A stretch of 64,000 nucleotides of DNA from Gammaproteobacteria bacterium (GCA_026709505.1 JAPOSW010000123.1:34703-98702), one strand, 5' to 3'. Shown: positions 5,327 through 31,014, numbered from the stretch's first letter. Notes: a model not told the origin generated them from the sequence alone. Numbers and translations: made by a program.

Positions 5327-7096
5327 TTAATTTGACTCTTTATCCAGCCGGACCCGAACATAAGTGCCGGGGGCATTTTCAATGATATCAAGTTTACCGT
5401 CCCCGGGAACCCTGCAAGGCACTTTTTCTCCACATTTTTGAGAGATCCAGTTCTGCCATTCAGGCCACCAGGATCCTTCATTGACCCTGGCATTCTCAAC
5501 CCACTTCTCCGGATCAGCTGATGGATTATCGGAGGTACGGTAATTGTATTTCTTTGCGACAGGCGGGTTGATGATTCCAGCAATATGGCCTGATCCGCTC
5601 AGAATGAATTTGACTGGTCCAGAGACTAGCTGGGTACCGGCATAGGTAGATTTCCATGGAGCAATATGATCTTCAATTGTCGAGACAAAGCAGGTCGGAA
5701 TATCAATCCTTGAAAGGTCGACACCTGTGCCATCAATGCTGACACCATTTGGCTCTTTCAGCTTGTCGTCGACATAAAAATTCTTGATGTACCAGGTGTG
5801 CATGCTTGCCGGCATTCTGGTTGAATCCGAATTCCAGTAAAGCAAATCAAACGCCTTGGGACTTTTGCCCAGCAAATAGTTGTTGACGTAAAACGACCAA
5901 ATCAGATCATTTGCACGCAACATATTGAAGACGCCAGCCATGTAATCTCCCTCCAGATAGCCTTTTTCGCTCATTTTTTCCTTGAGGCTCTCGAGTTGTT
6001 CCTCATCTGTAAAAACCCCGAGCTCACCGGGTTCAGAGTAATCCAGCATCGTGGTCAGGAAAGTGGCCGAATTGATTCTTTCGTCTCCTTTTGACCGTAG
6101 ATAGGCAAGCGCAGTTGCAAGCAATGCGCCACCTATGCAATACCCGATGACATTGAGTTTATCCTCACTGGTAGCCTGTTTCACCGCATCAAGGGCAGCT
6201 ATTAGCCCATCGAGAACGTAGTCATCAAACTGAACATCATGATAGCTCTCGTCAGGGTTGGCCCAAGACATCACGAATACTGTATGGCCTTGGTCTGACA
6301 GCCATTTGATAAAGGAGTTTTCAGGCTGAAGATCCAGCACGTAGTACTTGTTTATCCATGGCGGGACGATCAGCAAAGGCATGCTGTTGACGGTTTTTGT
6401 AGCTGGCTCGTATTGCAGCAATTCAAACATTCTGTTGCGAAATACCACCTTGCCGGGCGAAGCTGCGATATTTTTTCCGAGCTCAAAGGCATCCGTATCG
6501 GTCATGCTGATTTTGAGCGTTCCATTGCCCTTCTTGAAATCAGCCAGCATATTTTGCAACCCGTTGAGTAAATTTTCACCTTTGGTTTCAACTGCTTTCT
6601 CAATCACTTCCGGGTTGGTCAAGGCAAAGTTGGTTGGAGATAGACTGTCGATGTACTGCTCGGTGAAAAAAGCCATTTTCCTGGCGGTTTGTTCATCAAT
6701 GCCCTCAGTATTTGAAACAAGATCCCGAAAACATTTCGAGCTGAGCAGGTAGGATTGCTTGATCGCATTGAATATCGGCTGTTCCTCCCAGGCCTGATGG
6801 CGGAATCTTCGATCTCCCTTCCCTTCCTGAATCACCGGTTCAGAATCGACTCCCATCATCTGCATGGCTGTCTGCTGATAGAGCTTCATGGCATCTTGCC
6901 AATAGTTCATGCCGGTTTCGATCATTTTATCCGGGTTTTTCAGCATCGCCTCGTACCACTGCTGCCAAGTCTCAACCAGATTGAATGGATCAATATCGAC
7001 AATTCCATATTCGGAGGCGGTATCTTTCATCAATTTCTCCAATTCTTCCATCTTCGCTTTGTACTCTTCGCTGGTAATACTTGTCGTAGCATTCAT
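5327..7096 (-). CDS. phaC: Class I poly(3-hydroxyalkanoate) synthase
   Basis: 589 aa with the lipase-like box GYCIGG in VIGYCIGGALLA and typical PhaC length and N-terminal region. Neighbours are phaB and phaR. Confidence 0.9.
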   Translation of the reverse strand: MNATTSITSEEYKAKMEELEKLMKDTASEYGIVDIDPFNLVETWQQWYEAMLKNPDKMIETGMNYWQDAMKLYQQTAMQMMGVDSEPVIQEGKGDRRFRHQAWEEQPIFNAIKQSYLLSSKCFRDLVSNTEGIDEQTARKMAFFTEQYIDSLSPTNFALTNPEVIEKAVETKGENLLNGLQNMLADFKKGNGTLKISMTDTDAFELGKNIAASPGKVVFRNRMFELLQYEPATKTVNSMPLLIVPPWINKYYVLDLQPENSFIKWLSDQGHTVFVMSWANPDESYHDVQFDDYVLDGLIAALDAVKQATSEDKLNVIGYCIGGALLATALAYLRSKGDERINSATFLTTMLDYSEPGELGVFTDEEQLESLKEKMSEKGYLEGDYMAGVFNMLRANDLIWSFYVNNYLLGKSPKAFDLLYWNSDSTRMPASMHTWYIKNFYVDDKLKEPNGVSIDGTGVDLSRIDIPTCFVSTIEDHIAPWKSTYAGTQLVSGPVKFILSGSGHIAGIINPPVAKKYNYRTSDNPSADPEKWVENARVNEGSWWPEWQNWISQKCGEKVPCRVPGDGKLDIIENAPGTYVRVRLDKESN

Positions 7097-9035: not shown

Positions 9036-9501
9036 ATCACAGGGTTGCTACTCCCTTCGATTAACAGAGTGGCCCGCGAATTTGGAGATCGAATTCGCAT
9101 TAAAGCATATATCTTCGCTTATTCAAGCGCTTGCACCTGTGACATAATATCTGCATTCGCTTGGCTATAATCAGGTTCTGAAGGTAGCCATTGCACTCGA
9201 CATATCTCTATTTCCAACCTGCATACAAGCAGATATTGGCAAAATTATCTTCATTCAAGTTCACCGGAAGGAGAACGATATCCCTGCACTCGGTTAACTT
9301 TTATATGGACAAGCATTGGCATCTCTCGACAATAACAGGACAGGAAAATTCCGTCCGACATGTGAAAAAAGATGTTTTGATCCAGTCTAACGCAGGTTGC
9401 AAACAATATGACGTGGGATAATCCCGGGGCTTGAGAAAATCGTTCACAAAACAACTCCATAATGCCGTACAGGACTTTTGAAGTCTATCAATATCTAAAA
9501 T

Positions 9502-10389
9502 ATGCCTGAAGTTATGCAAACAGATTCTTTATCTCCGAGATTTAACCATTGTCTATCAATGACTTCGTCTGGGAGCACTCATGAGGTGCACTGGACAGAA
9601 TGGGGGGCGGTCGATCATGCGCATGCGGTGATTTGCGCACATGGATTGACAAGAAATGGTCGAGATTTTGACTATCTGGCAAAAAGATTGGGAAATCATT
9701 GCCGATTAGTCTGTCCAGACTATCCGGGGCGTGGCACAAGCCCTAAACTCGTAAACCCTCAGCACTATTCCATTGAACAGTACGTGATTGACACATTTTC
9801 CGTAATCAAAACACTTGAATACGACAAGCTGGATTGGATCGGTACATCGATGGGCGGCCTGATAGGAATGGCTATCGCCAGCATGCCAGAACATCCAGTC
9901 TCACGCATGATTATCAATGATGTTGGAGCTGAAATTCCCCAACAAAGCCTTTTCAGCCTTGCGGCAGAATTGGCTGATCAACCAGATCATTTCAACTCAA
10001 TGGAGGATGTCTACGATTATTTCCGAAAGGCTTACCCTGGTTTTGGCAAACTTGAAGATCACCATTACCGACATATGGGAGATCATAGCGTATGGCCTGG
10101 GTCTGATGGAAACGGTTATGAATTGGCCAGAGATCCTGCAATCATTACAGAATTGGCAAAGGTTCTTCCATCGGACCTGAATTTATGGGAAATCTGGGAA
10201 AAAATCAAAATTCCAGCCTTGATTATTCGAGGCGAACATTCGGGTTTATTGCTGGCAGAGACGGTTGATAAAATGCTGAAAATTCATATGGATGCATCGG
10301 CAATTCAATTCGCTGACTGTGGGCATGCACCCTCTTTGATGACCGATGATCAAATAGATGAAATCGCTGACTGGCTGGGGTTATCGTAG
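9502..10389 (+). CDS. Alpha/beta-fold hydrolase
   Basis: 295 aa with HGLTRNGRDFD, nucleophile elbow GTSMGG and C-terminal CGHAP (catalytic His region). Confidence 0.7.
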   Translation: MPEVMQTDSLSPRFNHCLSMTSSGSTHEVHWTEWGAVDHAHAVICAHGLTRNGRDFDYLAKRLGNHCRLVCPDYPGRGTSPKLVNPQHYSIEQYVIDTFSVIKTLEYDKLDWIGTSMGGLIGMAIASMPEHPVSRMIINDVGAEIPQQSLFSLAAELADQPDHFNSMEDVYDYFRKAYPGFGKLEDHHYRHMGDHSVWPGSDGNGYELARDPAIITELAKVLPSDLNLWEIWEKIKIPALIIRGEHSGLLLAETVDKMLKIHMDASAIQFADCGHAPSLMTDDQIDEIADWLGLS

Positions 10390-10427: not shown

Positions 10428-12020
10428 TTATTCGTCGATGATTCTGCCATCCAGTACAGGTTGATATGGATTATTTTTCTGCAGATAGTCAACCACAATA
10501 TCCGTTACCGCAGGTCCGTGGTCATTAGCATTGCGAGCACTTTGGGAAAAAACGGTGTAGCCATCGCCACCACCGCGCAGAAAATCATTGGTCACAACGC
10601 CATAAATCTGGTCTGGGTCGAGCGGTGCCCACTGATTTTGCTGGCTAACTTCAACATCGTAAACTCGCGCAGAATTGTTTTCCGTCAAGCGGGAATATCG
10701 AAACCGAAGCCCGGATACTTGTGGAAACCGTCCACTCCTTCCTGCCACTTGATCAACCCCGGACTCCAGTGAAGACAGAATATCCGCGCCAGTCAATTCG
10801 AAACTTGAAAGCTGATTTTGAAATGGATATACGGCAAGCACTTCGCCCATAGTGATTTCACCTTGATCAATCGAGCCGCGCAAGCCACCAGCATTGGCAA
10901 TAGCGATGTCATACCCTTGCGGTTTCATTCTGGCAAGCATCGCATCAGCGACCAGATTGCCAATTTTGCATTCCCTGGTCCGGCAATCAGTGCGATTGCC
11001 ATCTATTGGGCTTGCTGCCTCTGAAATTACCTGGCTATGCAGTACATTCAATGGCTTGACTAGCTTTTCAATTTCATTTCTTACTTCCTGATTTTGAGCG
11101 GTCCTGCTATCCAAAAGAATCGGGTTCCCGATTGCAGATGTTATTCTTCCACGATCATCAAACGTGACATCAAGGCGCCCAAGATATTTTCCGAAGGCAT
11201 AGGCCTGAACGATCGCTACAGCAGTCCCGTTTGGTGACCTCACCCAAGTTGGATATGGGCCTTCCGATTGTTGGCCATCCTGATTTGATAGAAACGTGTT
11301 GGTATGTCCTCCGACTATCACATCAATGCCATCAACGTTTGCTGCAATATGTTGATCCACATCATATCCAGAATGCGAGAGCAGAATAATTCTGTCAATT
11401 CCCTGCCTGGTTAGCCTTGCTATTTCCCGAGAAACAGCCATGACTGGATCTGTAAACGAAATATTTGGCCCAGGCGATGACAGCTCTGCTGTATTGACAG
11501 GCGCCAATCCGATCAAGCCATATCGATAACCGCTTTTGGCAATGATGGCTGAATGCTTCAGAACATCGTTTAATAGTGGTTCTCCCGAGATATCAGCATT
11601 GGACAATAAAACCGGAAACCTTGCTTGCTCAATAAATCTACGCAATGCTTGTGGTCCCAGATCAAATTCATGATTGCCGACAGTCATGCCATCGTAACGC
11701 ACCATATTCATCATCTTTACCAATGCCTGTCCTTGATAGTGGGTAAAGATGAGCGAACCCTGAAATTGATCACCGCCATCAACCAGTATTGAATGCCCGG
11801 ATTTCTCGCGTTCAGTCTGGACGACAGCTGCAAGTCTTGCATATCCGCCAAAGCACGCATTCTCGGCATCCCTTTCGCCATTACATGCATTGTTGCGCTG
11901 GTTAACGGGCTTGATCTGGGCATGGAGATCATTAGTGTGCAGGATCGTCAAGGTTTCAGCTTCGGCTCTGGCTGAAAACGATGCGATCAAAACGGCAAAC
12001 AGCAAAAAGATCCTGATCAT
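10428..12020 (-). CDS. Secreted bifunctional metallophosphatase / 5'-nucleotidase
   Basis: 530 aa with N-terminal signal peptide (MIRIFLLFAVLIASFSARA), calcineurin-like motifs HTNDLHA, GGDQFQG and GNHEFD, and a C-terminal 5'-nucleotidase domain. Confidence 0.85.
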   Translation of the reverse strand: MIRIFLLFAVLIASFSARAEAETLTILHTNDLHAQIKPVNQRNNACNGERDAENACFGGYARLAAVVQTEREKSGHSILVDGGDQFQGSLIFTHYQGQALVKMMNMVRYDGMTVGNHEFDLGPQALRRFIEQARFPVLLSNADISGEPLLNDVLKHSAIIAKSGYRYGLIGLAPVNTAELSSPGPNISFTDPVMAVSREIARLTRQGIDRIILLSHSGYDVDQHIAANVDGIDVIVGGHTNTFLSNQDGQQSEGPYPTWVRSPNGTAVAIVQAYAFGKYLGRLDVTFDDRGRITSAIGNPILLDSRTAQNQEVRNEIEKLVKPLNVLHSQVISEAASPIDGNRTDCRTRECKIGNLVADAMLARMKPQGYDIAIANAGGLRGSIDQGEITMGEVLAVYPFQNQLSSFELTGADILSSLESGVDQVAGRSGRFPQVSGLRFRYSRLTENNSARVYDVEVSQQNQWAPLDPDQIYGVVTNDFLRGGGDGYTVFSQSARNANDHGPAVTDIVVDYLQKNNPYQPVLDGRIIDE

Positions 12021-12241
12021 TCAGAAAACCATTCAATCGTAAAGTGTAATTTCATTATAGCCCTTGGTTTGCCCTGCTCCTGCCAAACGACCACACCATG
12101 GATAATTCGAAATTTGTCCTCAAGCACTGCTCTTCCGATTGATTGAACGAGGCGTGGATTTATTCAGATGGGCCGGTTTATCGGCTTGGAGCTTTTTTCA
12201 GCAAAATTTGTAAACGAAGTATATTTCATGGTTTGATTACG

Positions 12242-12333
12242 CTTAATTGGGCTTAAATAAATATCCTATTGTTTATATTTAAAAATTTTCGAATGACTCT
12301 TCTGGACGCAAGCAAACTCTTAATTGGGCTTAA
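12242..12333. repeat. Two direct copies of CTTAATTGGGCTTAA (12242-12256 and 12319-12333)
   Basis: Exact 15-nt direct repeat 77 nt apart in the intergenic region. The second copy forms the left arm of hairpin GGGCTTAA-TAAAGA-TTAAGCCC (12326-12347), which overlaps the stop codon of the 12340..13749 gene. Confidence 0.6.
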
Positions 12334-12339
12334 TAAAGA

Positions 12340-13749
12340 TTAAGCCCAAAATGGCACATAGCATGCGAAATGCCGGGAAGTACCGGCCTGCTCATCCAAC
12401 TTGATCATTTTGGCACCAACAGTTGCAGTAATTATCTGTGAGACCAAGGCATTTTTATTATCCGTTAGTCCGAAACGCTCACGCAATGACTGATTGGTCA
12501 TTTGTTGAGATGTAACCCATTTCAAGGCACAGTGCTGATAGCATGCCCGTATACGTTCTCGGCGGTCCATTTGCTTGAAATCTTTGAAACCCTGTATTTT
12601 GACCACCGTTCTACGGTGGCCAGTAAAAAAATCAGGAGCGGGCAACTGGAAAGTTTCCACTTCGCTTATTACTCTATCGATTCCACTGCTTTTCTCCTCG
12701 CAGATACCTTGCCGCCGCATAATCCGGACTAAACTTTCGTTTCTCGATTCATGACCATCAATAAAGCGCTCTACAGGTACTACAGGCTCCCCAGGATTTG
12801 AGATCTCCACACGGTCTGGATAGATTTCAACCATCATAGATGTGCCACTGATCGTAAAGTCCTGATGGATGAGTGCATTAGCAATTAGCTCTCGAATAAC
12901 AATTTCTGGAATCAGCTTTACTTCTTTGCGGATTGCTGTTTCTACAACCTCGTTTTGGGGTAATTGAGACATCACAAAGCTGATGAGTTCCTGAAAGCCA
13001 ACTGCATACCCTTTGGTTCCAGTATGATCAAGCCGAGTCTCCAGCTTTGATGTCCCTGCATAGACCACCACTCTTGATGCTTTGCGAGCCAGGTCTGGAA
13101 AGTCCTCCAATCGTTTCGCCAATAGTAATGCGCCCATGCGTCGGATTGAATACTTTGAGCTTAGTTGGTCAATGAGCTGATCATTCAGCAATCTTTCCAT
13201 AACGCCCGCTTGCTCTGTTGGATACGGTAATCCGAGTAGGTCGAAGTATGTCTGCGTGTCCAACAGGTTTACAACATCTCTTCTGTCAAGGCCAGTTTTT
13301 GATGGTTTCTCCAGCCAGTGACTGTCGCCCTCTGAAAATATGCGTCGCAACTGGTCTTCGCTCATGGGTCTTAGTGCTTGCCCTATCCGCATTAGATAAA
13401 CGCCATTTCTATGATAGGCGTTTCCACGAGGACGTGAGGGGATATGGAAAACCAGCACCCTGCCATTTGTGTGGTGAACTTCTTCAATATCCACTCGAAA
13501 GTGAATGGCTTGATAAACCTTTTCCTCCATCTCGACAGGATTATGGAAAGCGCTTGTACCAACTGCATTCCTTGGAGGCTCATCTGCTACACCCGGTACA
13601 AGTTTTCCGCCACCCTCGTTAGCAATCGCAACACAGTACTTGTATAGCTTGCTATTATCAACTTGCCGTTTGGCTTCCTTGAATTCCAGTGACTGATGCT
13701 CAGAAGGGCTCTGGCACCAGAGATCTATTTGTTCTGGTGTTATTGTCAA
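12340..13749 (-). CDS. AlbA_2 (Schlafen-like 'divergent AAA') plus HATPase_c_4-type ATP-binding putative DNA-binding protein (RecG-like transcriptional regulator family)
   Basis: 469 aa. The N-terminal SEHQSLEFKE block is typical of AlbA_2 domains. The C-terminal ELIANALIHQDF...GGSGI-like region is typical of the associated ATPase-like and wHTH part. Confidence 0.65.
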   Translation of the reverse strand: MTITPEQIDLWCQSPSEHQSLEFKEAKRQVDNSKLYKYCVAIANEGGGKLVPGVADEPPRNAVGTSAFHNPVEMEEKVYQAIHFRVDIEEVHHTNGRVLVFHIPSRPRGNAYHRNGVYLMRIGQALRPMSEDQLRRIFSEGDSHWLEKPSKTGLDRRDVVNLLDTQTYFDLLGLPYPTEQAGVMERLLNDQLIDQLSSKYSIRRMGALLLAKRLEDFPDLARKASRVVVYAGTSKLETRLDHTGTKGYAVGFQELISFVMSQLPQNEVVETAIRKEVKLIPEIVIRELIANALIHQDFTISGTSMMVEIYPDRVEISNPGEPVVPVERFIDGHESRNESLVRIMRRQGICEEKSSGIDRVISEVETFQLPAPDFFTGHRRTVVKIQGFKDFKQMDRRERIRACYQHCALKWVTSQQMTNQSLRERFGLTDNKNALVSQIITATVGAKMIKLDEQAGTSRHFACYVPFWA

Positions 13750-19673: not shown

Positions 19674-20245
19674 CGGACTGTTTAGTCAAGCGCGTACTTG
19701 GGGGGTGTTCTGGCATGAAATGCCGAGCTCCATATATGACCGAACCTGAAATATCGCCTATTTTGAGGATAATTTCAATAGGTTTATAGATTGAGGCTAG
19801 CGTTGGAGAAATTTTTACGATGCATGGCTTGTCAGTTGGATTTGACTGCATAATTGGCTGTTCTAAAAAAGAACAAAATATGGCACAAACAAAATTGCCG
19901 GATTAGGCTTTAAGCCCTGATCGCTTCTAATCCGGTATATTATGACTAATTCTACTTTCCAGCTTGAAACGGTTGGAGCTATTTCCCCAGCGATTCAGGC
20001 CTGATAGACAATGGCCGGCACAATCAATCTCATAGTCTATCTGGCATTTCGATTCTTGCTCCGCGGCGCGTTCGCGAATTTTGTGCCAGTCAGCCGCCAC
20101 CCTTGGATCAACCCCCATTTTTCCTTGATGACGGTGTCCACGCACCGCGGGGTTGGGGCTTTTAAGCAACAGGAACAAAACCAGTAATTACGAGGAACTG
20201 CTTCGAAAAAATAACCGTATTTGTGTCAGGTTTACCTATATCTAT

Positions 20246-20892
20246 CCCCAATTCCACTCTGAAGTGCAACACCCTGGGGGTCGGCAGCATGCTGCAGACG
20301 GCCAGCAGGCGGATGACAATCTCCATACCGTTAACCATGGAGAACTGTCATGCGCAAAAGCTGCCGCCAGCTGGCCTGCGATGAACGATGCCAGATCAAG
20401 GTTCTGTTGTCCGGAGTCCTGTCGATTGGCGAGATCGCCCGCAACCGCGGAGAGCGCGGCTACCGCCACCGGCAGGCCCAGGACAGGGCCCGTGCCCGCC
20501 GCAGCCGTGCTTCCAGCGTTCCGCGCAAGCTGACGGAGGGCTGGAGTCCGGAGCAGACGAGGGCCGCCTGAACCGCTGCCCCCGCAAGGCGCTGGGCTGC
20601 CTCATGCCATTCGAGGTCTTTCACGAAGTCCTGCCCTCGCCCTGATTCCCTGGCCGGGTCAGGTCCTGAGCTGCGCCCGCAACCGGCGGGCGATGGATAC
20701 ATGCGCCTGCAGGGCCCGCACTGGGTCTTGCAGTGCCGGACTGCATCGCTTATGATGCCGGAAAGTCGAGACTGTCGCCGCTTCGGCATCGAACGAACGC
20801 TTCCAGATCCTGGCTTCCCCCCTGTCTGTCCATGAAGGCTATGCCTTCATGGACAGACAGGGGCAGTGTTGCACTTCGGACTGGAACTGGGG
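20246..20892 (+). mobile_element. Internally deleted IS30-family element (MITE-like relic, transposase pseudogene)
   Basis: Terminal inverted repeats CCCCAATTCCACTCTGAAGTGCAAC (20246-20270) and GTTGCACTTCGGACTGGAACTGGGG (20868-20892) match at 22/25 positions. The interior keeps only an IS30-like N-terminal HTH (DERCQIKVLLSGVLSIGEIARN), then GWSPEQ joined directly to the C-terminal LNRCPRKALGCLMPFEVF. The DDE core is missing. The segment is GC-rich relative to host DNA. Confidence 0.7.
20819..20863. repeat. Perfect 21-bp-stem hairpin (CCCCTGTCTGTCCATGAAGGC-TAT-GCCTTCATGGACAGACAGGGG)
   Basis: Exact inverted repeat with a 3-nt loop, read directly from the sequence. It lies just inside the right IR of the IS30 relic. 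Confidence 0.9.
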
Positions 20893-21055
20893 TACTTAAA
20901 AATGGCCGCTATTCTAGGCAAATACTCTCATTTTGACCTCAAGCGCATTCCAGTTTGTCAAAATTGAAGCCCAGAATCTACAAGCTTACCCAGAATTAGA
21001 ATTGTTGTTACTTTTATCCATAATTCGAACCCATAACTCTGCCGAGGTCAGTTAA

Positions 21056-21808
21056 GTGGACATAATATTGGTACTTTGTGCAGGAAAAGTCAGCATTGCT
21101 TCTGGCTTAACTCAGGTGAAGCAACTATACAAACTGGCAAAAGTGCTGCCAGATAAGCAATGTTTATATTTGGACCGTGAGCGGGATATTGATATTCCTT
21201 TATTGCCAGATGAGTTTATTATTCTTCATGGCGGGGAAAAAATATTTTCTGAAAATCCGGGTTTGGATATCGGCAATAATCCCGCAGTCCGACGACCGAT
21301 TTACCCGATATTCAATGACAGGAAAATCAGTCCGGGACTTGAATGTGCGAAGCTATCCGGCGCTGAACTTCAGCAACATGATACAAACTTTCCATCAATC
21401 AGACTTTTTGCAGACATTGAAGGTGGGCTTGATCAATTGATCAGCCCAGAAATGACTCTTGTGGTTCAAGACAATGACAGTTACTTTACGGTTCCTATTG
21501 ATCAAGAGGGATCTATAGAGTTAGAAGAATGTGCAAAACATGGTCGAAGGCCGCCAAAGGGAGATGGATATTTTTATCGTATTAAAATTGACGGTGAGAA
21601 GTATAAGGTTACCGAAATGAAGATGGTTGGAGAAGATATTCTCCGTTTGGTTGGCAAAACTTATGACGAATGGACTATGAATCAAAAACTGAAAGGGGGG
21701 CGTAGAGTTTCAGTTGAAAAAGATCAGTTAGTTGACCTGTCAGTGCCGGGAGTAGAGAGGTTTGAAACTGCAAAAAGGCAGGCGCAGCAAGGTATAGATC
21801 ATTGGTGA
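21056..21808 (+). CDS. Multi-ubiquitin-type protein: three tandem beta-grasp (Ubl) repeats, C-terminal ...QQG-IDHW
   Basis: 250 aa, GTG start with GAGG 8 nt upstream. Three internally similar units each end in a D-x-hhh-L-x-x-G-x-E-[KR]-F type block (DIPLLPDEFIILHGGEKIF / DQLISPEMTLVVQDNDSYF / DQLVDLSVPGVERFET). The third unit (YFYRIKIDGEKYKVTEMKMVGEDIL...) resembles the 'Multiubiquitin' family as I recall it. Sits in an operon with E2 and JAB-E1 genes. Confidence 0.65.
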   Translation: MDIILVLCAGKVSIASGLTQVKQLYKLAKVLPDKQCLYLDRERDIDIPLLPDEFIILHGGEKIFSENPGLDIGNNPAVRRPIYPIFNDRKISPGLECAKLSGAELQQHDTNFPSIRLFADIEGGLDQLISPEMTLVVQDNDSYFTVPIDQEGSIELEECAKHGRRPPKGDGYFYRIKIDGEKYKVTEMKMVGEDILRLVGKTYDEWTMNQKLKGGRRVSVEKDQLVDLSVPGVERFETAKRQAQQGIDHW

Positions 21809-22179
21809 GAATTTTAACCGATGAAGACGAGCAATTTTTGAATGCTAATGGATTCAACTGGAAGTTGCTGTTCGAAAACAATGCCAAACAGGGTCTATTG
21901 GTGAAGCGATTTCAGGTACCGACTGGCTATCAGCCTGATACGGTTGACCTGATGATTTTGATTCCTGAAAATTATCCTGTAGCAGGTATCGACATGTTTT
22001 ATCTTTGTCCTGCAATTTTTCGTGATGATGGCAGGAATATCAATGCCCTAGAGATTGAAAATCATTTTGATAGGCAATGGCAGCGATGGTCTAGGCATTA
22101 TGATTGGCACGCCGGTTACTGCAGCATTGCAACACATATAAAGTTTGTAAGCAATCAACTTGAATCTGAACTTAACTGA
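21802..22179 (+). CDS. Prokaryotic E2-like (UBC-fold) protein, Prok-E2 family E-like
   Basis: 125 aa. LILIPENYPVAGIDMFYLCPAIFRDDG, then WQRWSRHYDW, matches my recollection of the Prok-E2_E family. Candidate catalytic Cys69 lies ~10 residues after the YP motif. The start is TTG 21802 or GTG 21805 (GTGA overlap with the Ubl stop). Confidence 0.6.
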   Translation: MVRILTDEDEQFLNANGFNWKLLFENNAKQGLLVKRFQVPTGYQPDTVDLMILIPENYPVAGIDMFYLCPAIFRDDGRNINALEIENHFDRQWQRWSRHYDWHAGYCSIATHIKFVSNQLESELN

Positions 22180-22208
22180 AATTATTTTCCAATTGTTCAG
22201 TACACTCC

Positions 22209-23660
22209 ATGCCACACACTCTCTCTTTAACTAAAAGTTTATACGATGATCTTCGTACCCATCTTTACCCAGATGATGGGTTTGAGTCTGTTGCAGTAAT
22301 GCTATGCCATTCTGGCATTGGTAAACTAGGCCTTCGACTGATGGCAAATCAATTAATGCTGGTTGATACTGAGCTTTGTTATGAAAGATCATCAAACAGA
22401 TTATGCTGGCCATTTGCATCCTGCTTCAACCCCGAAAAGATCTCCGAAATTGATGAACTTGGCTTGTCGATAATGACAATTCACAGTCATCCAAGTGGAT
22501 TCAGTGATTTTTCAGAAATCGATGATAAGAACGACTGTGAGTTATTCTCTTCTGTGTGCAGCTGGTTTGATGACGACAGGCCTAATGGATCGGCAATCAT
22601 GCTTCCGAACGGGCAAATACTTGCACGACTTGTGAACCATGCAGGAAAATTTACCTCGATTCAAACGGTTTCGGTGATTGGTGAAGATATAAGTATTTGG
22701 AAACAAAACAGCATAGGAAGAAAAGTTCCAAGTTTTGGATCAAGGATTGCGCAAACTTTTGGAAAGGGAACTTATCAATTATTAAGAAAAATCCGCGCAG
22801 GCGTGGTTGGTTGCTCAGGAAGTGGAAGTATCGTTGTTGAGCTATTGTCTCGAAATTGTATAGGTCATTTAGTGATTGTTGATCCAGACGACGTAGAAAC
22901 AAAAAACCTGAATAGAGTCATCAATTCAACAAAGGCCGATGCAAGAAAGAAGACTCCCAAAGTGGAGTTACTCAAACGTTCCGTAAGACGGATGGGCATG
23001 GGTACTGAGGTGGATGCACTAAAATCCGATACAAGAGATAGACAGGTCATAGAAGCTTTGGCAGATTGCGATGTGCTATTTGGATGTGTGGATTCAGCAG
23101 AGGGGCGCTATCATCTCGAATGCATAGCATCGGCCTACTTCATTCCCTATTTTGATGTTGGCGTGAATCTGGAAAGTGATGATATGGGCAATATACTGCA
23201 AGCGGATGCAGTGTCGCACTACATGCACCCTAATAACACTAGTTTGATGGCTCGTGGAGGGTATACGACAGAACAAGTAACTGCGGAAAGCTGGCATCGA
23301 ACTAACAGGGGGTATTACGAAAGGCAGCGGGTAGCAGGATACCTAGCTGACATTAGTGAGGATCAACCTGCAGTCATGTCGATAAATATGCAGGCAGCTT
23401 GTCTCGCATTTAATGACTTCATTGCTCGTCTTCACAACTTTCGACTTGACAGCAATGATGATTTTTCTACTCAAAGGTTTCGGTTTGTGCATGGATATTC
23501 TGAAAATCTGGGAAATAAAGTTACCGTTGATTCCCTGTTTTCCAAATTTTCCGGCAAGGGGGAGAGAAGCGACCTAATCAAGATGTTAAAAGGCAGAGGT
23601 AGTCTAATTCCTGAAGGCAGTGCAACGGTTCAGAGCATAAAAGCCGAGGTGGGTGGATAG
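22209..23660 (+). CDS. JAB/JAMM metalloprotease - E1 (ThiF/MoeB-type adenylyltransferase) fusion protein
   Basis: 483 aa. Has a complete JAMM signature: Glu26, then H92-S-H94-x7-S102-xx-D105 (HSHPSGFSDFSEID, nt 22482-22523). The ThiF-like Rossmann region is VVGCSGSGSIVVELLSRNCIGHLVIVDPDDVETKNLNR, followed by DVLFGCVDS. Confidence 0.85.
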   Translation: MPHTLSLTKSLYDDLRTHLYPDDGFESVAVMLCHSGIGKLGLRLMANQLMLVDTELCYERSSNRLCWPFASCFNPEKISEIDELGLSIMTIHSHPSGFSDFSEIDDKNDCELFSSVCSWFDDDRPNGSAIMLPNGQILARLVNHAGKFTSIQTVSVIGEDISIWKQNSIGRKVPSFGSRIAQTFGKGTYQLLRKIRAGVVGCSGSGSIVVELLSRNCIGHLVIVDPDDVETKNLNRVINSTKADARKKTPKVELLKRSVRRMGMGTEVDALKSDTRDRQVIEALADCDVLFGCVDSAEGRYHLECIASAYFIPYFDVGVNLESDDMGNILQADAVSHYMHPNNTSLMARGGYTTEQVTAESWHRTNRGYYERQRVAGYLADISEDQPAVMSINMQAACLAFNDFIARLHNFRLDSNDDFSTQRFRFVHGYSENLGNKVTVDSLFSKFSGKGERSDLIKMLKGRGSLIPEGSATVQSIKAEVGG

Positions 23661-23774: not shown

Positions 23775-26510
23775 ATGTCTCAGAGCTTAATCATTAATTC
23801 TCCCTATTCTTGCCCAGATAGGCATTGGGTACCAGGAACGGACGGTGAGCCATTAACCCGAAAGGACGGGCGTAGGCCTGCAGGCTACACGATAGCAGAC
23901 CCGACTGCAAAACCCTACCACGATAGAGGTATATTTGTTGAATTGCCAATTGTGAATCAGATTCGACAACGAGTTGATCAATGGCGGATGTCGGGCTACG
24001 AGGGTATAACCGGGATAACCAAGGTGCTTCTTGAGCATTGGCTGGACAATGACCAAAGGGAGTTTCCGTTTTTCTTTTGTCAAATTGAGGCGATTGAGAC
24101 ACTTATCTGGCTGATAGAGTCTCCAGAATCAGAAAAAAGCGGTATAGAAATCAAATCCGACGGTGGAGAATTCCTTCGCTTGTGTTCAAAACTTGCTACT
24201 GGAACGGGTAAAACAACGGTTATGGCGATGTTGATAGCATGGCAATCAATAAACCGTTCTACATACCCTATAGATCGGCGTTTTTCACAAAACTTTTTCG
24301 TTGTTGCTCCGAATCTGACAGTAAGAGAACGGCTTGCTGTTCTTGTGCCCTCAAACCAACCTAACTACTACGATGAATTTGGAATTGTCCCGCCATCACT
24401 GCGGCAGAAGTTTCTGCAAGCAAACGTATTGGTTCGTAACTGGCACGCTCTGAATTGGGAAACAGAAAACACAATAGAGAAGAAGAAAGGTGTAGATAAG
24501 CGAGGAGTCAAAAGTGATGAGGCATACACGCGCGAAGTATTGGGTGATATAGCACATGCCAAAAACATTGTTGTTATAAACGATGAAGCTCACCATGCAT
24601 GGCGTGTTCCAGCAGGTTCAAGGATTAAGGGTGTCCGGAAAGAAGAGATCGATGAAGCGACAAAATGGGTCGGTGGGCTTGATCGAATTCATAAAACTCG
24701 AGGCATACTATCATGCTTTGATTTTTCGGCTACTCCGTTTGCACCGAACGGAAGAAAAACTTCTGAAGAAGCATTATTTGACTGGATTATCAGTGATTTT
24801 GGGCTGAATGATGCTATCGAGTCTGGGCTAGTGAAAACGCCGAGAGTCGTGATTCGAGATGATGCCTTGTCCAATGCAAAAACCTACAAGTCACGCTTGT
24901 ATCACATATATAGTGATAACGAAGTGAAAGACGATCTAAACAGAAAGGCAAAGCCGCATGACCTTCTTCCAGACTTTATTGTCAATGCATACACATTACT
25001 AGGATATGACTGGAACAAGACCAAAGACTTGTGGAGTGATCGAGAAACTCCCCCTGTGATGATCACTGTAGCTAATCGTACAGAAACTGCCGCGAGAATC
25101 AATCATGCATTTATTAACAACAACATACCTGGTGTTGACTCACTGTCTGATCCAGATGGAATTTTGCACATTGATTCGAAAGTACTTAAGGAGGCAGAAG
25201 ATGAAAGCATGGAATCCAGTTCGGCAAAAAAGCAAGGAGCAACCGCTTTGCGGGAAAAAGTCAACACTGTGGGGCAAATGGGAAAGCCGGGCGCAAAGGT
25301 GCAAAATGTCATCTCTGTGGGGATGTTGTCCGAGGGTTGGGATGCGCGAACTGTTACTCAGATAATGGGGTTGCGTGCTTTTTCTAGCCAGTTGCTTTGT
25401 GAACAAGTTATTGGACGAGGATTGCGACGTTCTTCCTATGAGGTCAACGAAACAACTGGAATGTTCGACCCAGAATATGTCAATGTTTTTGGGGTGCCAT
25501 TCAGTTTTTTACCGCATGTTGAAGAGTCAGGCAACCCACCTGCAGTTTCTGAGAAAATCACCGTTCAGCCTGTTAAGGAAAAAAAACAGTTTGCCATCAA
25601 ATGGCCTAATGTAGTCCGTGTAAACAGGACTCTAGAATCGAAACTTACCATTGGTTCCTGGGAAAAGGTTTTACCGCTGACAATTGATTCGGCTCAAACG
25701 GTGCAGTTGGTGGAATTAGCGCCGACAGTTGATAACCAGCCTGATGTTTCAAAAATTTCTGACATAGATCTCAATGAATTAGGGGCAAAAAACCGTATTC
25801 AGACGACCATATTCAGGACGGCAAAAGCCGTATTTGAAGAGGAATCGCTGGGTTGGAAAGGATCACAGGCTATTTTGATGGCGCAGCTTGTACAACTTGC
25901 AGAGCAGTTCCTCAATTCCGAAAAAATAAAGGTCATCCCTGAACTGTATAACCAGGATAGATGGAAAAGACAACTGGTAATCTCATTGAATATGTCTAGA
26001 GTCATCCGTCATTTCTTGAACATGATTCAGGAGGAAAACACTCAAAAAGCAGAGCTTGTACTTGACGAGAATTACCCTATTCGTTCAACTGAAGACATGC
26101 GACCATGGCGTACTGGGAAGCCATTCGAGGCAACAAATAAAAGCCATATCAATTATTGCGTATTTGACAGTGCATGGGAAGAATCTGCGGCAATCGAGCT
26201 TGATCGAAACGATGTTGTGGCATCATGGGTGAAAAATGATCATCTCGGATTTGAGGTGTTATACACTTATCAAGGAGTGGTCAGAAAATACAGGCCTGAT
26301 TATCTGGTCTATTTGAAATCTGACAAGACTTTGGTTCTGGAAATCAAAGGACAACAGGAAGATCAGGACAATGCAAAACATTCGTACATGAAGCAATGGA
26401 TTAAAGCGGTTAATGGAGATGGTAGATTTGGTTTCTGGCAGTTTACTGTTTCGCGCTCTCCGTCTGATTTAAAAGATATTCTCGTTCAGGCAAATGGTGA
26501 GTCACCGTGA
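23775..26510 (+). CDS. res: Type III restriction enzyme Res subunit (SF2 helicase + C-terminal PD-(D/E)XK nuclease)
   Basis: Start moved to ATG 23775 (MSQSLIINSPY, GAGG RBS). Helicase motif I is ATGTGKT, motif II NDEAHH and motif VI QVIGRGLRR. The C-terminal nuclease motif is YRPDYLVYL...LVLEIKGQ. Confidence 0.85.
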   Translation: MSQSLIINSPYSCPDRHWVPGTDGEPLTRKDGRRPAGYTIADPTAKPYHDRGIFVELPIVNQIRQRVDQWRMSGYEGITGITKVLLEHWLDNDQREFPFFFCQIEAIETLIWLIESPESEKSGIEIKSDGGEFLRLCSKLATGTGKTTVMAMLIAWQSINRSTYPIDRRFSQNFFVVAPNLTVRERLAVLVPSNQPNYYDEFGIVPPSLRQKFLQANVLVRNWHALNWETENTIEKKKGVDKRGVKSDEAYTREVLGDIAHAKNIVVINDEAHHAWRVPAGSRIKGVRKEEIDEATKWVGGLDRIHKTRGILSCFDFSATPFAPNGRKTSEEALFDWIISDFGLNDAIESGLVKTPRVVIRDDALSNAKTYKSRLYHIYSDNEVKDDLNRKAKPHDLLPDFIVNAYTLLGYDWNKTKDLWSDRETPPVMITVANRTETAARINHAFINNNIPGVDSLSDPDGILHIDSKVLKEAEDESMESSSAKKQGATALREKVNTVGQMGKPGAKVQNVISVGMLSEGWDARTVTQIMGLRAFSSQLLCEQVIGRGLRRSSYEVNETTGMFDPEYVNVFGVPFSFLPHVEESGNPPAVSEKITVQPVKEKKQFAIKWPNVVRVNRTLESKLTIGSWEKVLPLTIDSAQTVQLVELAPTVDNQPDVSKISDIDLNELGAKNRIQTTIFRTAKAVFEEESLGWKGSQAILMAQLVQLAEQFLNSEKIKVIPELYNQDRWKRQLVISLNMSRVIRHFLNMIQEENTQKAELVLDENYPIRSTEDMRPWRTGKPFEATNKSHINYCVFDSAWEESAAIELDRNDVVASWVKNDHLGFEVLYTYQGVVRKYRPDYLVYLKSDKTLVLEIKGQQEDQDNAKHSYMKQWIKAVNGDGRFGFWQFTVSRSPSDLKDILVQANGESP

Positions 26511-26645: not shown

Positions 26646-29219
26646 ATGAAGAAATCCCCAAAAGACAGGCCAATTAAATCATACGATCACAAAACCGCAA
26701 AACGGGCTAACAATCCTCCTGTAGGATTGGTGACTCCAGCCACTGATCCTGACGTGGTAGTAAGGCAGAGCTACGAATATGATCCACATATAGATCCCTG
26801 TTTTCAGTGGGCTGGCAAGACTGAACGCAGCTCATTTGAAGTGCCCATTCAGTCGCTGCATGTTCATGAACGTATCGACCCACGCACCATAATTGAAGCG
26901 GTTAGAAAACGGGGAAGTGATGATGGACAGACATCGTTGTTTGACAACGTGCGCAATGCTCCACTACGTGATGAAATAGAGTTCTATCAGCATGCACATG
27001 ACTGGAGCAATCGACTCATTGCTGGCGATTCACTACTCGTCATGAATTCGCTTTTGCAAAAGGAAAACATGGCAGGTCAAGTGCAATGCGTGTTCATGGA
27101 CCCACCCTATGGAATTAAATATGGTTCAAATTTCCAGCCTTTTGTAAACAAGCGAGAAGTTCGGGATGGCAAGGATGAAGATCTAGCTCCTGAACCAGAA
27201 ATGATTAAGGCTTTTCGGGATACTTGGGAACTAGGAATTCATTCGTACCTCTCTTATTTGAGGGATCGGCTACTGTTAGCAAAAGAATTGTTGAATAAGA
27301 GAGGAAGTGTGTTTGTTCAGATAGGTGATGAGAATGTGCATCGAGTAAGTCTTATCATGGATGAGATTTTTGGTGCAGAAAATCGCATGTCAACCATCTC
27401 CTTTGCTACCACCAGCGGCAGCTCAAGTAAGCATCTGCCTTCTGTGGCCGACTATTTGCTCTGGTATGCCAGGGACAAGCGACAGGCGAAGTATCGACAG
27501 TTGTATGAGACTTTAAGCCGGGCAGAGGTTATCGACTACTTCAATTGGGATGTGGCTGTAGAGTTGCCGGATGGAAACAGCCGAAAAGTAACGGCTGACG
27601 AACGAGTTAATCCCGACAAGTTTCTCCCAGAAGGTGCTCGCATATACCGACGTGTTGGACTGGATTCGCAGGGAGTCTCAACAACTGGTCGTTCAGACCC
27701 GTATGAGTGGAATGGAAGAATTTTCCATTGCTTGAAAACCCGGCAATGGTCCATATCCAAAGAGGGCATGGACCGACTGGCCGAGTTGAACAGGCTGGAA
27801 GCGCTTGAAGGCCAGAATTCCCTGATGTGGAAGAAATACGAAGATGAAGTACCAGGCCGCCGCATCCATAATGTCTGGCCTGCACAGATGTATCCCAGCG
27901 AAAAAAGGTATGTTGTTGAGACTAGTGTAAAGGCGATTCAGCGGTGTATTTTAATGAGTACAGATCCAGGTGACTTGGTGTTTGATCCAACTTGCGGTAG
28001 TGGGACAACCGCATTTGTTGCAGAACAATGGGGGAGACGTTGGATGACATGTGATACATCCAGAGTTGCATTGACTCTGGCACGGCAACGTTTGATGACT
28101 GCTACATTTGACTATTACAAACTTGCATGGCCAGATGAGGGTGTAGGCAGCGGTTTCAAATATAAATCTGTGTCAAAAGTATCGCCAAGCACTCTAATCG
28201 ACGATAGTCCACCACCAAGTATATATTTGTATGACCAGCCCGAAAAAGATACGGCAAAAGCCCGGGTCACTGGGCCATTTACAATGGAGGCCGTACCGTC
28301 TCCAACCGTGAGAGCGATTGACGATGCAGGGTCGGAGAATTCATCAGTGGCGGATGGATCAGTGTCTCGTAGCGGTGAGACTTTGCGCCAGAGTGAGTGG
28401 CGAAGTGAGTTGCTCAAGACGGGCATTCGCGGTAAAGGCGGACAACGCATTAAATTTTCTCGAGTAGAGTCTCTGCCCTTTCATTGGTTACATGCTGATG
28501 CAGAAACTCGATCAGTGCACACAGATGATGACTTTAATGACGAGTCATCATCAGAATTCCAGCCACAACGAGCAGTAGTAAGCTTTGGACCACAGCATGC
28601 ACCGTTGGAGCAAAGACAGGTTGAATTGGCGTTGCAAGAAGCGGCAAGTTTAAAACCTACACCGACAATGGTCATCTTTGCCGCACTTCAGTTCGACCCG
28701 GAAGCTGCAAAAGACATTGATGAAACGAAATGGGAAGGTGTAAGCCTGCTGAAAGTACAGATGAATACCGATCTGCACACAACAGATCTCAAGAAAAAAC
28801 GCGCCAGCAATGAGGGATTCTGGTTGGTTGGACAGCCTGATGTAAGCTTAACGCAGATTCGTCAAGGCAAGTTTTCAGGACAGTGGCAGGTACAAGTTCA
28901 GGGGTTTGATTATTTTAACACCCGGACTTGCGAGCTTGAATCAGGTGATGAAAAGCGCGTCGCCATGTGGATGTTGGACTCCGATTATGATGGCAGAAGT
29001 TTTTATCCTCGCCAGGTGTTTTTTCCTATGGCAAGCCAAAAGGACGGCTGGGCAAAATTAGCAAAAAACCTCAAGGCCGAGATTGATGAGGATCTGATTG
29101 AGGCCTATCACGGAGTTCAGTCACTCCCATTTGAATTGGGGAAATATGAACGTGTTGCAGTAAAGATTGTGGATGACCGTGGTATAGAGAGTCTAAAGAT
29201 TCTGCCTATTTATTCTTGA
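26646..29219 (+). CDS. mod: Type III-like beta-class DNA methyltransferase (Mod) with long C-terminal extension
   Basis: 857 aa. Motif IV DPPY (FMDPPYG, nt 27099-27110) precedes motif I FDPTCGSGTT (~residue 446), which is the beta-class order. About 400 aa follow motif I. Confidence 0.85.
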   Translation: MKKSPKDRPIKSYDHKTAKRANNPPVGLVTPATDPDVVVRQSYEYDPHIDPCFQWAGKTERSSFEVPIQSLHVHERIDPRTIIEAVRKRGSDDGQTSLFDNVRNAPLRDEIEFYQHAHDWSNRLIAGDSLLVMNSLLQKENMAGQVQCVFMDPPYGIKYGSNFQPFVNKREVRDGKDEDLAPEPEMIKAFRDTWELGIHSYLSYLRDRLLLAKELLNKRGSVFVQIGDENVHRVSLIMDEIFGAENRMSTISFATTSGSSSKHLPSVADYLLWYARDKRQAKYRQLYETLSRAEVIDYFNWDVAVELPDGNSRKVTADERVNPDKFLPEGARIYRRVGLDSQGVSTTGRSDPYEWNGRIFHCLKTRQWSISKEGMDRLAELNRLEALEGQNSLMWKKYEDEVPGRRIHNVWPAQMYPSEKRYVVETSVKAIQRCILMSTDPGDLVFDPTCGSGTTAFVAEQWGRRWMTCDTSRVALTLARQRLMTATFDYYKLAWPDEGVGSGFKYKSVSKVSPSTLIDDSPPPSIYLYDQPEKDTAKARVTGPFTMEAVPSPTVRAIDDAGSENSSVADGSVSRSGETLRQSEWRSELLKTGIRGKGGQRIKFSRVESLPFHWLHADAETRSVHTDDDFNDESSSEFQPQRAVVSFGPQHAPLEQRQVELALQEAASLKPTPTMVIFAALQFDPEAAKDIDETKWEGVSLLKVQMNTDLHTTDLKKKRASNEGFWLVGQPDVSLTQIRQGKFSGQWQVQVQGFDYFNTRTCELESGDEKRVAMWMLDSDYDGRSFYPRQVFFPMASQKDGWAKLAKNLKAEIDEDLIEAYHGVQSLPFELGKYERVAVKIVDDRGIESLKILPIYS

Positions 29220-29228
29220 TAAAAGATC

Positions 29229-30506
29229 ATGTTTAAAGAACTAGAAATTACAAACTTTAGGGGCTTCAAAGAGTGCATAACAGTGAAGTTCGCCCCGATC
29301 ACTGTACTTATAGGACGCAACAATGCTGGTAAGTCTTCTATCGTTAAGTTTTTGCTAATGCTCCAACAGTCATTAGGAACTGGAAAATCAGGATTTTTGG
29401 TTTCAAGAGGAGAAAGGACAGACCTAGGACCATTCCACAACCTAAAAAATACGCTATCCGGAGAAAAGACTCTGGCTTTTTCACTAACCATGGAAGATTT
29501 TACAAGTCCCAGAGATTCACTGTCTCTATACCTGCAAAAGAAAAACAAGACACTCTGGCCAAAGAATGGGGTATTTCAGACAGCAGCAGAGGTTTCTTAC
29601 AGTAAGAAAATTCCATTTCAGGGAAAGAAACACAGTTTTTGTCTCAAAATCGATGGCGAAGAAGTGACTGGCCGAACAGCTGGAATCAGTCAAAATTCTA
29701 ATTTTCTGGATTTTGCAGATGCTCAGAAATCAAAAATCGATTCTCATGCAGACAGTAGCGAAATTGCTGCAGAGAACGCATGTCTTGAAGTAATTGCGAA
29801 AAAACTTGTGACAATCAGACACATCAGCCCAGATAAGAAAAGTGTTCCGAGGTCGTTTGATACTGGTGAATTTACTCCTGAAACTGATGTTGGGCAAGAT
29901 GGAAGATTTGCGCTACATCATCTGTGGAATCTTCATGAAGATGGCGGTCAAAATGAGATGGATTTTGTGAGTCAATACATGGAAAAAGTTTTGGATGTCA
30001 CGGATATCAGGTTCACGGACCCAAAAGATGGCGATCTTTCTCAATGCATGGCCAACAATCAAAATACTAGGGCCAACAACAATTTAGCCGACTTTGGGCA
30101 TGGAGTAAGCCAATGTTTTCCAATCTTTGTGCAGGGAGCGTTAATGCCTCCTTATTCGACCCTAATTTGTGAACAGCCCGAGTCTCAAATCCATTCTAGT
30201 GCTCAACTGGAGTTGGGGCAATATTTTGCCGATTTATGGACCAATAGAAAAGTGGCCTCAATAATTGAGACGCATAGTGACAGCATTTTGCTAAGGCTTA
30301 GGCGATTGATTTCAACAGGTAAGTTGCAAGCATCTGATGTCAGTGTGGTCTATCTATCTGTTGATTCCATCGATAATGAACAGTCGGTTTCGGTTAGAAA
30401 CTTGGGTATTGAAAGTGACGGTTCCATGGAGGACGGTCTTCCAATGGAATTCTTTCATCCAAACATATGGGAACTCTTGGAAATGGTAGAAAGTAGTGAA
30501 GAATAG
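29229..30506 (+). CDS. ABC/SMC-type AAA ATPase (AAA_15/21 with DUF3696-like C-terminus)
   Basis: 425 aa. N-terminal LEITNFRGF and Walker A GRNNAGKSS (K35), signature-like FGHGVSQ, Walker B-like LICEQPESQIH and H-loop IETHSDSILLRLRRLI. Starts 9 nt after the mod stop. Confidence 0.8.
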   Translation: MFKELEITNFRGFKECITVKFAPITVLIGRNNAGKSSIVKFLLMLQQSLGTGKSGFLVSRGERTDLGPFHNLKNTLSGEKTLAFSLTMEDFTSPRDSLSLYLQKKNKTLWPKNGVFQTAAEVSYSKKIPFQGKKHSFCLKIDGEEVTGRTAGISQNSNFLDFADAQKSKIDSHADSSEIAAENACLEVIAKKLVTIRHISPDKKSVPRSFDTGEFTPETDVGQDGRFALHHLWNLHEDGGQNEMDFVSQYMEKVLDVTDIRFTDPKDGDLSQCMANNQNTRANNNLADFGHGVSQCFPIFVQGALMPPYSTLICEQPESQIHSSAQLELGQYFADLWTNRKVASIIETHSDSILLRLRRLISTGKLQASDVSVVYLSVDSIDNEQSVSVRNLGIESDGSMEDGLPMEFFHPNIWELLEMVESSEE

Positions 30507-31014
30507 TGCGACAATGGACGCAATTGCCATGGATACCAACGTTTTTGGACATCTCACGCATTATTCCGGAATTAACAAGAATCAGCACATAAACAAACTG
30601 CTTAAATATCTGATTAAGAGCCAGATCAGCCTGCTGGTTGATAAGGACAATAAGATTTTGAATGAATATAAACATCATCTGAATAAACCAACATTCAAAC
30701 GTAAATATGACAAGAGAGAAGAATCGTATTTCCTGCAGTATTTTATGGATCCAGCAAGGCACAAACCGGTTTTTGTGAACGAAACAGACGATTTATGGAA
30801 CGCAATCATCGCTATCGTAGATGATCCTAATGAAGTCGATCAAAGGTTGGTATATGTTGCTTTTTGTAAAGGCAAATTATTATTATCCAATGATAATGAA
30901 GATATAGTAAGTCAAAGAAGCTTGTTATTCGAGAAGACAAAAGGCAAACGTGAAAAAGGTAGTGACATTATGAACTCGCAGCAGGCATTCAATACGATAT
31001 TGAGTAATGACTGA
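30496..31014 (+). CDS. Small PIN-like protein (putative nuclease partner of the ATPase)
   Basis: 172 aa from GTG 30496 (11-nt overlap with the ATPase gene), or from ATG 30514. N-terminal AMDTNVFGHL resembles PIN strand 1 (hhDTNVh), and C-terminal KLLLSNDNEDI resembles the terminal PIN h-h-T/S-x-D motif. I recognise no other family. Confidence 0.45.
   Translation: MKNSATMDAIAMDTNVFGHLTHYSGINKNQHINKLLKYLIKSQISLLVDKDNKILNEYKHHLNKPTFKRKYDKREESYFLQYFMDPARHKPVFVNETDDLWNAIIAIVDDPNEVDQRLVYVAFCKGKLLLSNDNEDIVSQRSLLFEKTKGKREKGSDIMNSQQAFNTILSND

Follow-up and report, generated by a model that had tools for sequence, protein, structure and literature searches.

A split Bub protein-conjugation module without BubE, probably stacked in a Type III-like restriction operon of a gammaproteobacterium

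Introduction

Three consecutive genes encoding a ubiquitin-like protein (Ubl), an E2-like protein and a JAB peptidase fused to an E1 domain are found beside restriction genes in a 64,000-nt stretch of DNA from a Gammaproteobacteria bacterium (GCA_026709505.1, JAPOSW010000123.1:34703-98702), referred to in its full length as the window. Which conjugation system do they represent, and what is its relation to the restriction genes? The answer proposed here, with a probability of roughly 0.8, is a protein-conjugation module of the Type I Bub kind (formerly 6E.1), in a split variant without BubE, carried as stacked cargo in a Type III-like restriction-modification (R-M) operon.

The multi-Ub/E2/JAB-E1 operon was described as '6E' by Iyer, Burroughs and Aravind (PMC1779556); Ye et al. 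renamed it Bub and characterised it structurally and biochemically (PMC11601596). Type I Bub comprises a BubAB (Ubl-E2) fusion, given for 'all Type I Bub operons', BubCD (JAB-E1) and BubE, a serine protease (DUF6527) that all Bub operons are said to have (PMC11601596). In the Citrobacter system, BubA, BubB and BubCD alone give conjugates that depend on ATP, both in vitro and in E. coli, conjugation is abolished by Y370F and by S333A/H335A, and the JAB domain cuts after a conserved Gly (PMC11601596). No phage phenotype has been obtained for Bub, and its targets and biological role are undemonstrated (PMC11601596; PMC13373217); an original prediction, made from the window sequence alone, had already said the same of target and role for this arrangement.

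The three proteins of the module

The window proteins match Bub structures directly. BubCD aligns with Citrobacter BubCD (9ea4_A) at E 3e-70 over residues 5-438, and BubB with Citrobacter BubB (9eae_C) at E 9e-19 with the WSRH motifs in register. The predicted open reading frames (ORFs), with their start/stop overlap, are present in the sequence, and profile, PDB and structure searches agree on the predicted Ubl, E2 and JAB-E1 domains. Wrong, in the light of these matches, was the view that the operon is distinct from Bub and its arrangement uncharacterised, '6E' being the Type I Bub of Ye et al. (PMC11601596).

In BubCD, Pfam recovers ThiF (3.9e-25) and, under its own cut-off, Prok-JAB (2.6e-4). 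The JAB assignment is secure because the match to 9ea4 is nearly full length and the complete JAMM signature that had been predicted (E26, H92, H94, S102 and D105) is invariant in BubCD relatives. The E1 domain carries G201xxG204xG206, R236 and a crossover-loop tyrosine, Tyr378. Residues E26, H92, H94, D105, R236 and Y378 correspond to E28, H91, H93, D104, R227 and Y370 of the Citrobacter protein, and the mapped residues, Y378 included, are invariant in five relatives. Against the PADLOC models of Cap2-type E1-E2 proteins, the E1 domain gives weak and partial matches, the best at 4e-10 over ~120 residues. Its matches to ThiF/MoeB models could also be read as the sign of a sulfur-carrier pathway (ThiS/MoaD with ThiF/MoeB) serving cofactor biosynthesis instead of protein conjugation. 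Such a role is hardly credible: all NCBIfam ThiF/MoeB scores are far under their cut-offs (<=66 bits versus 152-647, e.g. 66 versus 275), the module includes an E2 and a JAB peptidase, and no thiamine or molybdopterin genes occur among the listed neighbours of related loci, while the neighbours in the window encode R-M, ATPase and PIN-like proteins.

BubB belongs to Prok-E2_E (Pfam 7.5e-30). Its D64, S97 and H99 map exactly onto D299, S333 and H335 of Citrobacter BubB and are invariant in 14 homologs, S97 and H99 lying within the motif WQRWSRHY. The predicted catalytic residue is therefore Ser97, assisted by His99 and Asp64. The original prediction had instead centred the E2 core on Cys69, just downstream of a YP motif, which would call for a canonical thioester cascade with Cys69 carrying the Ubl. 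This proposal does not survive comparison, since the Cys69 column is variable in the 14 homologs (S/C/D/F/L) and holds Tyr in Citrobacter BubB. A thioester cascade is also very improbable on other grounds: BubCD has no Cys in residues 306-397, so that the E1 crossover region lacks one, and the characterised homolog works without cysteines (PMC11601596).

In BubA, Pfam detects Multi_ubiq (5e-11) in residues 174-240 only. An AlphaFold2 model built with 64 homologs (predicted local distance difference test score, pLDDT, 94.2) contains three beta-grasp units. Foldseek pairs the model over its full length with 9d5a and 9cd2, two solved Ubl structures of three domains (E about 1e-10). The last domain of the model is paired with a BubA domain-3 fragment (residues 155-229; 9ea8_B), at a TM-score of 0.81 when normalised to target length. 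Three internally similar repeats had been predicted; they exist at the level of the fold, but not of the sequence, in which the repeats have no detectable mutual similarity (local alignment z <=1.3 versus shuffles). Only domain 3 aligns to solved Ubl3 proteins in profile and sequence searches, domains 1-2 being too diverged. Filament-forming Ubl3 proteins carry conserved acidic residues in domains 1-2 that coordinate Ca2+, and their dimers or filaments are Ca2+-dependent. Five acidic residues of window BubA (E61, D109, D126, D141 and E157) are invariant, invariant acidic residues occurring in domains 1-2, but they are not mappable onto the published Ca2+ sites by sequence.

The QQG motif ending at Gly246 is invariant in the 64 homologs, and three of five aligned BubA relatives end right there; in the window protein it is followed by a 4-residue tail, IDHW. 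Conservation thus points to Gly246 as the mature C-terminus, in keeping with the original proposal. At the other end, truncation of BubA by the element upstream of the gene was considered and ruled out, as M1 aligns with all homologs.

BubA and BubB each have an ORF of their own, in different frames, and the stop of the first overlaps the start of the second by 4-7 nt. Gene callers start bubB at GTG 21805, which yields 124 residues and a GTGA overlap with the bubA stop; this start is more likely than TTG 21802, and the GTGA overlap is typical of translational coupling. The bubA start itself is preceded by GAGG, 9 nt 5' of the GTG. Most of the 120 best BubA homologs stand alone, with 241-255 residues, and 14 close BubB homologs are stand-alone proteins of 122-126 residues. 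Among the 150 best representative BubB clusters, 70 are stand-alone-sized, and the others have sizes of fusions to one (39), two (12) or three (27) beta-grasp domains. Judging from these homologs, the split BubA/BubB arrangement is common in databases and not a frameshift artefact. A frameshifted BubAB pseudogene and a programmed -1 frameshift were both rejected, given the stand-alone homologs and clusters and a junction without visible slippery site.

A likely oxyester pathway

The conservation of the Bub catalytic residues D64, S97, H99 and Y378, combined with the variability of Cys69, makes an oxyester relay, not a thioester relay, the likely chemistry, by residue-level homology to the Citrobacter system. 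In the proposed pathway, the JAB domain of BubCD would first trim IDHW after Gly246 of BubA, and the E1 domain would then adenylate Gly246. BubA would pass to an oxyester on Tyr378, in the cysteine-free crossover loop, then to an oxyester on BubB Ser97 with the aid of His99 and Asp64, and finally to lysines of targets. To our knowledge, Bub systems are the only Ubl conjugation systems whose intermediates are oxyesters instead of thioesters. The copy in the window is a derived variant, in which bubA and bubB are separate and translationally coupled and in which, bubE having been lost, the JAB domain would be the only peptidase.

Embedding in a restriction operon

The three Bub genes belong to a 10-kb, seven-gene block located between CNNM transporter genes and a polyphosphate kinase gene, in an otherwise housekeeping region. 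Within this block, all on one strand, the order is Bub-Res-Mod-AAA-PIN, where Res and Mod are the restriction and modification proteins and AAA-PIN denotes an ATPase gene followed by a gene for a PIN-like protein. The original prediction had rightly recognised a protein-conjugation cassette in a defence-type neighbourhood; its wording of a position at the head of a defence island was imprecise, as the cassette lies among housekeeping genes and relatives hold Bub between mod and res. Res exceeds the NCBIfam equivalog cut-off for the BPTD_3080 family (NF046055, 1040 bits versus 800) and also matches Pfam ResIII. The adjacent Mod is of Type III type (Pfam N6_N4_Mtase, 4.6e-30; PADLOC MTase_III, 1.4e-150). 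Together, they identify a BPTD_3080-family Type III-like R-M system.

Related loci were sought in several ways. A scan of genome contigs with the single BubCD protein returned nothing, an alignment-based scan found loci and a metagenome scan added six; the cassette proteins were then mapped by tblastn onto 33 fetched loci (numbered with the prefix L). Res is co-linear with Bub genes in 16 related loci. The order Mod-AAA-PIN-BubA-BubB-BubCD-BubE-Res recurs in 13 distinct loci with gaps of 2-62 nt and 35-70% identity. These come mostly from metagenome-assembled genomes (MAGs) of Oxydemutatoraceae, Arenicellales, Tethybacter and other Gammaproteobacteria, and the names of the source MAGs suggest sponge symbionts. 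The window, L004 and L033 have the rotated order and no BubE. About nine loci carry BubA-B-CD-E without R-M genes, and some of these have an upstream CapH/CapP-like pair or pentapeptide-repeat gene.

The R-M-embedded loci form one clade in a neighbour-joining BubCD tree, and the trio of window, L004 and L033 is nested within it; therefore, both the permuted order and the loss of BubE are derived. The partial contig L018 falls in the same clade, without detectable Res. Pairwise divergences are correlated between BubCD and Res (Mantel r 0.71), BubCD and AAA (0.82) and Res and Mod (0.65), with p <=0.0035 in all pairwise tests. Bub and restriction genes have been inherited as a unit. No paper describing Bub embedded in a restriction operon was found in the literature.

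BubA of the embedded clade varies in its number of beta-grasp domains, with one in L008 (~9320-9610) and L009 (~9320-9610), two in L012 (~9115-9612) and three in others. In L008, L009 and L012 the tails past the invariant QQG have 1-4 residues (TPCL, MFGL, A). Since domain number varies in these three loci, only the C-terminal domain is constant in the clade.

Loss of BubE in a module under selection

Searches of the window by tblastn and with a hidden Markov model built from 23 sequences did not find bubE (DUF6527) in its 64 kb: the best E was 0.28, versus 3.8e-57 for the positive control. Outside the sub-clade of the window, the Bub-bearing relatives examined have BubE directly after BubCD. 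Gene predictors leave bubE uncalled in most of the related loci that have gene calls (e.g. L002 9775-10137 and L003 9784-10122); annotation-based surveys would accordingly undercount BubE.

The BubE-less state is common to the window, L004 and L033, at 73-87% amino-acid identity. The three share fragments of their flanks and hence are orthologous loci; independent insertions of a permuted cassette were rejected for this reason. Ratios of nonsynonymous to synonymous substitution rates (dN/dS) among the three loci are 0.16-0.31 for BubA, 0.17-0.23 for BubB and 0.13-0.17 for BubCD, and values in this range (0.13-0.31) indicate that the three-gene module is kept by selection.

One may ask whether the operon is a decaying remnant, left non-functional by the loss of bubE, rearrangement and insertion of a transposon-like element upstream. 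The absence of BubE, the gene order permuted with respect to 13 relatives and a 647-bp inverted-repeat element (20246-20892) directly upstream of bubA would fit such a history. Decay is nonetheless improbable, as all ORFs are intact, every catalytic residue is kept and the BubE-less arrangement persists in three diverged orthologous loci with the low dN/dS ratios given above.

BubCD of the BubE-less sub-clade has a specific C-terminal extension of ~18 residues, encoded in the window at 23604-23660 (residues 466-483). Its last two residues are Gly-Gly in the window and L004, but not in L033, so that this ending is probably a by-product of the rearrangement. The extension itself is probably a by-product of the deletion that removed bubE.

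Stacked cargo or integrated system

The R-M operon most probably holds a stack of several defence or stress modules that act separately, Bub being one of them. A Planktothrix plasmid (L020) has the R-M operon with the ATPase-PIN pair and without Bub, and Agrobacterium (L021) has the R-M operon without any insert, neither Bub nor ATPase-PIN. In L006, the mod-res gap additionally contains a Schlafen/AlbA_2-HATPase gene (11906-13144) and an AAA/subtilase (Peptidase_S8) pair. This modularity, together with the varying number of BubA domains, favours the mod-res gap as an accumulating slot.

The alternative is an integrated system, in which Bub is a functional component of the R-M/ATPase-PIN operon and the seven or eight genes act as one defence system. 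For instance, attachment of the Ubl might turn the restriction enzyme or the PIN toxin on or off, or might tag phage proteins once restriction is engaged. In favour of integration, the eight-gene order with its short gaps recurs in 13 distinct loci at 35-70% identity, the embedded BubCDs form one clade, Bub and R-M divergences correlate as strongly as those of Res with Mod, and the linkage outlived the circular permutation of gene order in the sub-clade of the window. However, every module is also found alone (L020, L021 and the ~9 Bub-only loci), in L006 the gap is shared with unrelated modules, the partners of Bub operons elsewhere are CapH/CapP-type regulators (L003 and L025; PMC11601596), and the correlation may merely reflect co-inheritance. 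Integration is a real possibility, yet the less probable outcome. The same holds for its specific form, a tentative proposal in which the Bub module, with JAB only and no BubE, would modify, or be set off by, either the Res/Mod or ATPase-PIN proteins encoded with it or phage proteins blocking these.

Several points weigh against a split Bub module carried as separate cargo. The tight conserved gene order and the correlated divergence fit an integrated system as well as co-transfer. BubE, stated to occur in all Bub operons, is absent here, and regulation may differ. Gene content, homology, residue conservation, synteny and purifying selection are shown, whereas the chemistry, the processing step and the biological role are inferred; for the oxyester relay, the source is a homolog of only moderate sequence identity. 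Finally, a defence role is an assumption, no Bub operon having conferred phage protection so far (PMC11601596; PMC13373217).

Other features of the cassette and its surroundings

The genes of the cassette are compiled in Table 1. The bubCD and res genes are spaced by 114 nt; the res ORF is open from 23724, and its start and ribosome-binding site were read from the sequence. A scan for promoters and terminators gave counts near the shuffled expectation and was uninformative.

Table 1. Genes of the seven-gene cassette (positions counted from the first nucleotide of the window)
Gene	Coordinates	Strand	Product
bubA	21056..21808	+	250 aa, GTG start; Ubl with three beta-grasp domains (Ubl3)
bubB	21802..22179	+	125 aa from TTG 21802; stand-alone E2-like protein
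bubCD	22209..23660	+	483 aa; JAB/JAMM peptidase (~aa 1-165) fused to ThiF-type E1 adenylation domain
res	23775..26510	+	911 aa from ATG 23775; Type III-like restriction endonuclease/helicase, BPTD_3080 family
mod	26646..29219	+	857 aa; N6/N4 DNA methyltransferase, Type III-like
AAA_15/ABC-type ATPase	29229..30506	+	425 aa; partner of the downstream PIN-like protein
PIN-like protein	30496..31014	+	172 aa, diverged; putative nuclease; start overlaps ATPase gene by 11 nt

The ATPase matches Pfam AAA_15 (1.3e-19) and AAA_21, as well as the PADLOC models NsnB (6.5e-43), PDC-M55A and HEC-03B. The 172-aa protein encoded downstream is assigned as a diverged PIN-like domain and putative nuclease. D13 (in IDTNVF), D49, D115 and D133 are invariant in its orthologs, 8 of 14 of which have weak Pfam PIN matches (best 5e-4), some matching PIN_3 or PIN_12. 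Pfam gives no significant match for the window protein itself, a PDB profile search finds nothing, and an AlphaFold2 model from three sequences is unusable (pLDDT 37). In every related restriction operon, that of the Bub-less Planktothrix plasmid among them, the ATPase gene and the overlapping PIN-like gene are conserved between mod and either the Bub genes or res. They may constitute an uncharacterised ATPase-nuclease defence pair.

The 647-bp element upstream of bubA is GC-rich and is bounded by 27-nt imperfect inverted repeats, 89% complementary, whose arm sequence matches at these two sites only within the window. A perfect 21-bp hairpin lies within it at 20819-20863, and Pfam gives no match for its short ORFs. 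The element looks like a miniature inverted-repeat transposable element (MITE) or an insertion sequence remnant. An assignment of the GC-rich stretch 20150-20900 as an IS30 fragment was dropped for lack of a Pfam match, and only the description as inverted-repeat-bounded and MITE-like is retained. In L004, its position is taken by a gene (4777-6357) for a 526-aa predicted lipoprotein-like product with a HELLH metalloprotease-type motif and no Pfam match; this gene is absent from the window.

Elsewhere in the window, a protein with Schlafen/AlbA_2 and HATPase_c_4 domains is encoded at 12340-13749 on the minus strand, 7 kb upstream of the cassette; the L006 protein encoded at 11906-13144 has the same two Pfam domains. 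A 966-aa ORF without Pfam match lies at 996-3896, with a GC content of 0.595 versus ~0.45-0.50 around it. Among the related loci, pentapeptide-repeat genes occur immediately upstream of bubA in L001 (6257-7255; a Bdellovibrionales MAG) and upstream of mod in L031 (4772-5545). The pentapeptide-repeat fold is that of known DNA mimics, and these proteins may be regulators or anti-anti-restriction factors.

Significance

The published Bub definition, with a BubAB fusion and an obligatory BubE, is too narrow, since split BubA/BubB proteins are common and a BubE-less form is under purifying selection. Unusual in the window is a Bub copy without the usual protease gene inside an R-M gene cluster, and a whole clade of Bub modules sits between mod and res of a Type III-like restriction operon, beside an ATPase-PIN pair. 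This embedding offers a concrete genomic context for finding the function of Bub. If the linkage is functional, it would provide the first physiological context and candidate targets for an orphan pathway. If it merely reflects co-transfer, the outcome is a tidy annotation of a known system, with the restriction operon as a slot for defence cargo.

Comparison with known systems

The closest system is the Type I Bub operon BubAB-BubCD-BubE of Citrobacter sp. RHBSTW-00271 (Ye, Gong, Chambers and Corbett; PMC11601596; 9ea4, 9eae, 9eav). Both have the JAB-E1 fusion with its JAMM residues, an E2 of the Prok-E2_E family that carries the Asp/Ser/His triad, an E1 crossover loop free of Cys in which a Tyr is invariant, and a three-beta-grasp Ubl with a conserved terminal Gly. 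In the window, however, BubA and BubB are encoded by separate overlapping genes rather than as a JAB-cleaved fusion, bubE and the CapW, CapH/CapP or CapK/CapS regulators are missing, and the module is embedded with a Type III-like R-M operon. Ubl3 multi-ubiquitin proteins (Gong et al., PMC11601603; 9cd2, 9d59/9d5a, 8u38) resemble window BubA by their three tandem beta-grasp domains, whereas domains 1-2 of the window protein are too diverged for sequence alignment and its clade includes relatives with one or two domains. Type II Bub (BubA, a BubBD E2-E1 fusion and BubE) draws its Ubl, serine E2 and tyrosine E1 from the same protein families; it differs from the window, where E2 and E1 are separate proteins and there is a JAB domain.

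More distant are Bil (BilABCD) and the Cap2/Cap3 proteins of Type II cyclic-oligonucleotide-based anti-phage signalling systems (CBASS), which, like the window, have bacterial E1/E2/JAB conjugation machinery in defence contexts. In Bil, the JAB is separate and the E1 has an inactive and an active adenylation domain in tandem and a Cys domain, while the window has a single ThiF domain fused to JAB and no crossover Cys. Type II CBASS combines a Cap2 E2-E1 fusion and a separate JAB with a CD-NTase, which synthesises cyclic oligonucleotides, and an effector, and has no Ubl; the window E2 is separate and of the Prok-E2_E family, and no CD-NTase was identified among the cassette genes. On the restriction side, the counterpart is the operon of plasmid3 of Planktothrix agardhii NIES-204 (AP017994.1). 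Its PIN-like and res genes have no Bub genes between them, and the order in the window is rotated relative to it; its Mod, AAA_15, PIN-like and Res proteins are 32-58% identical to those of the window.

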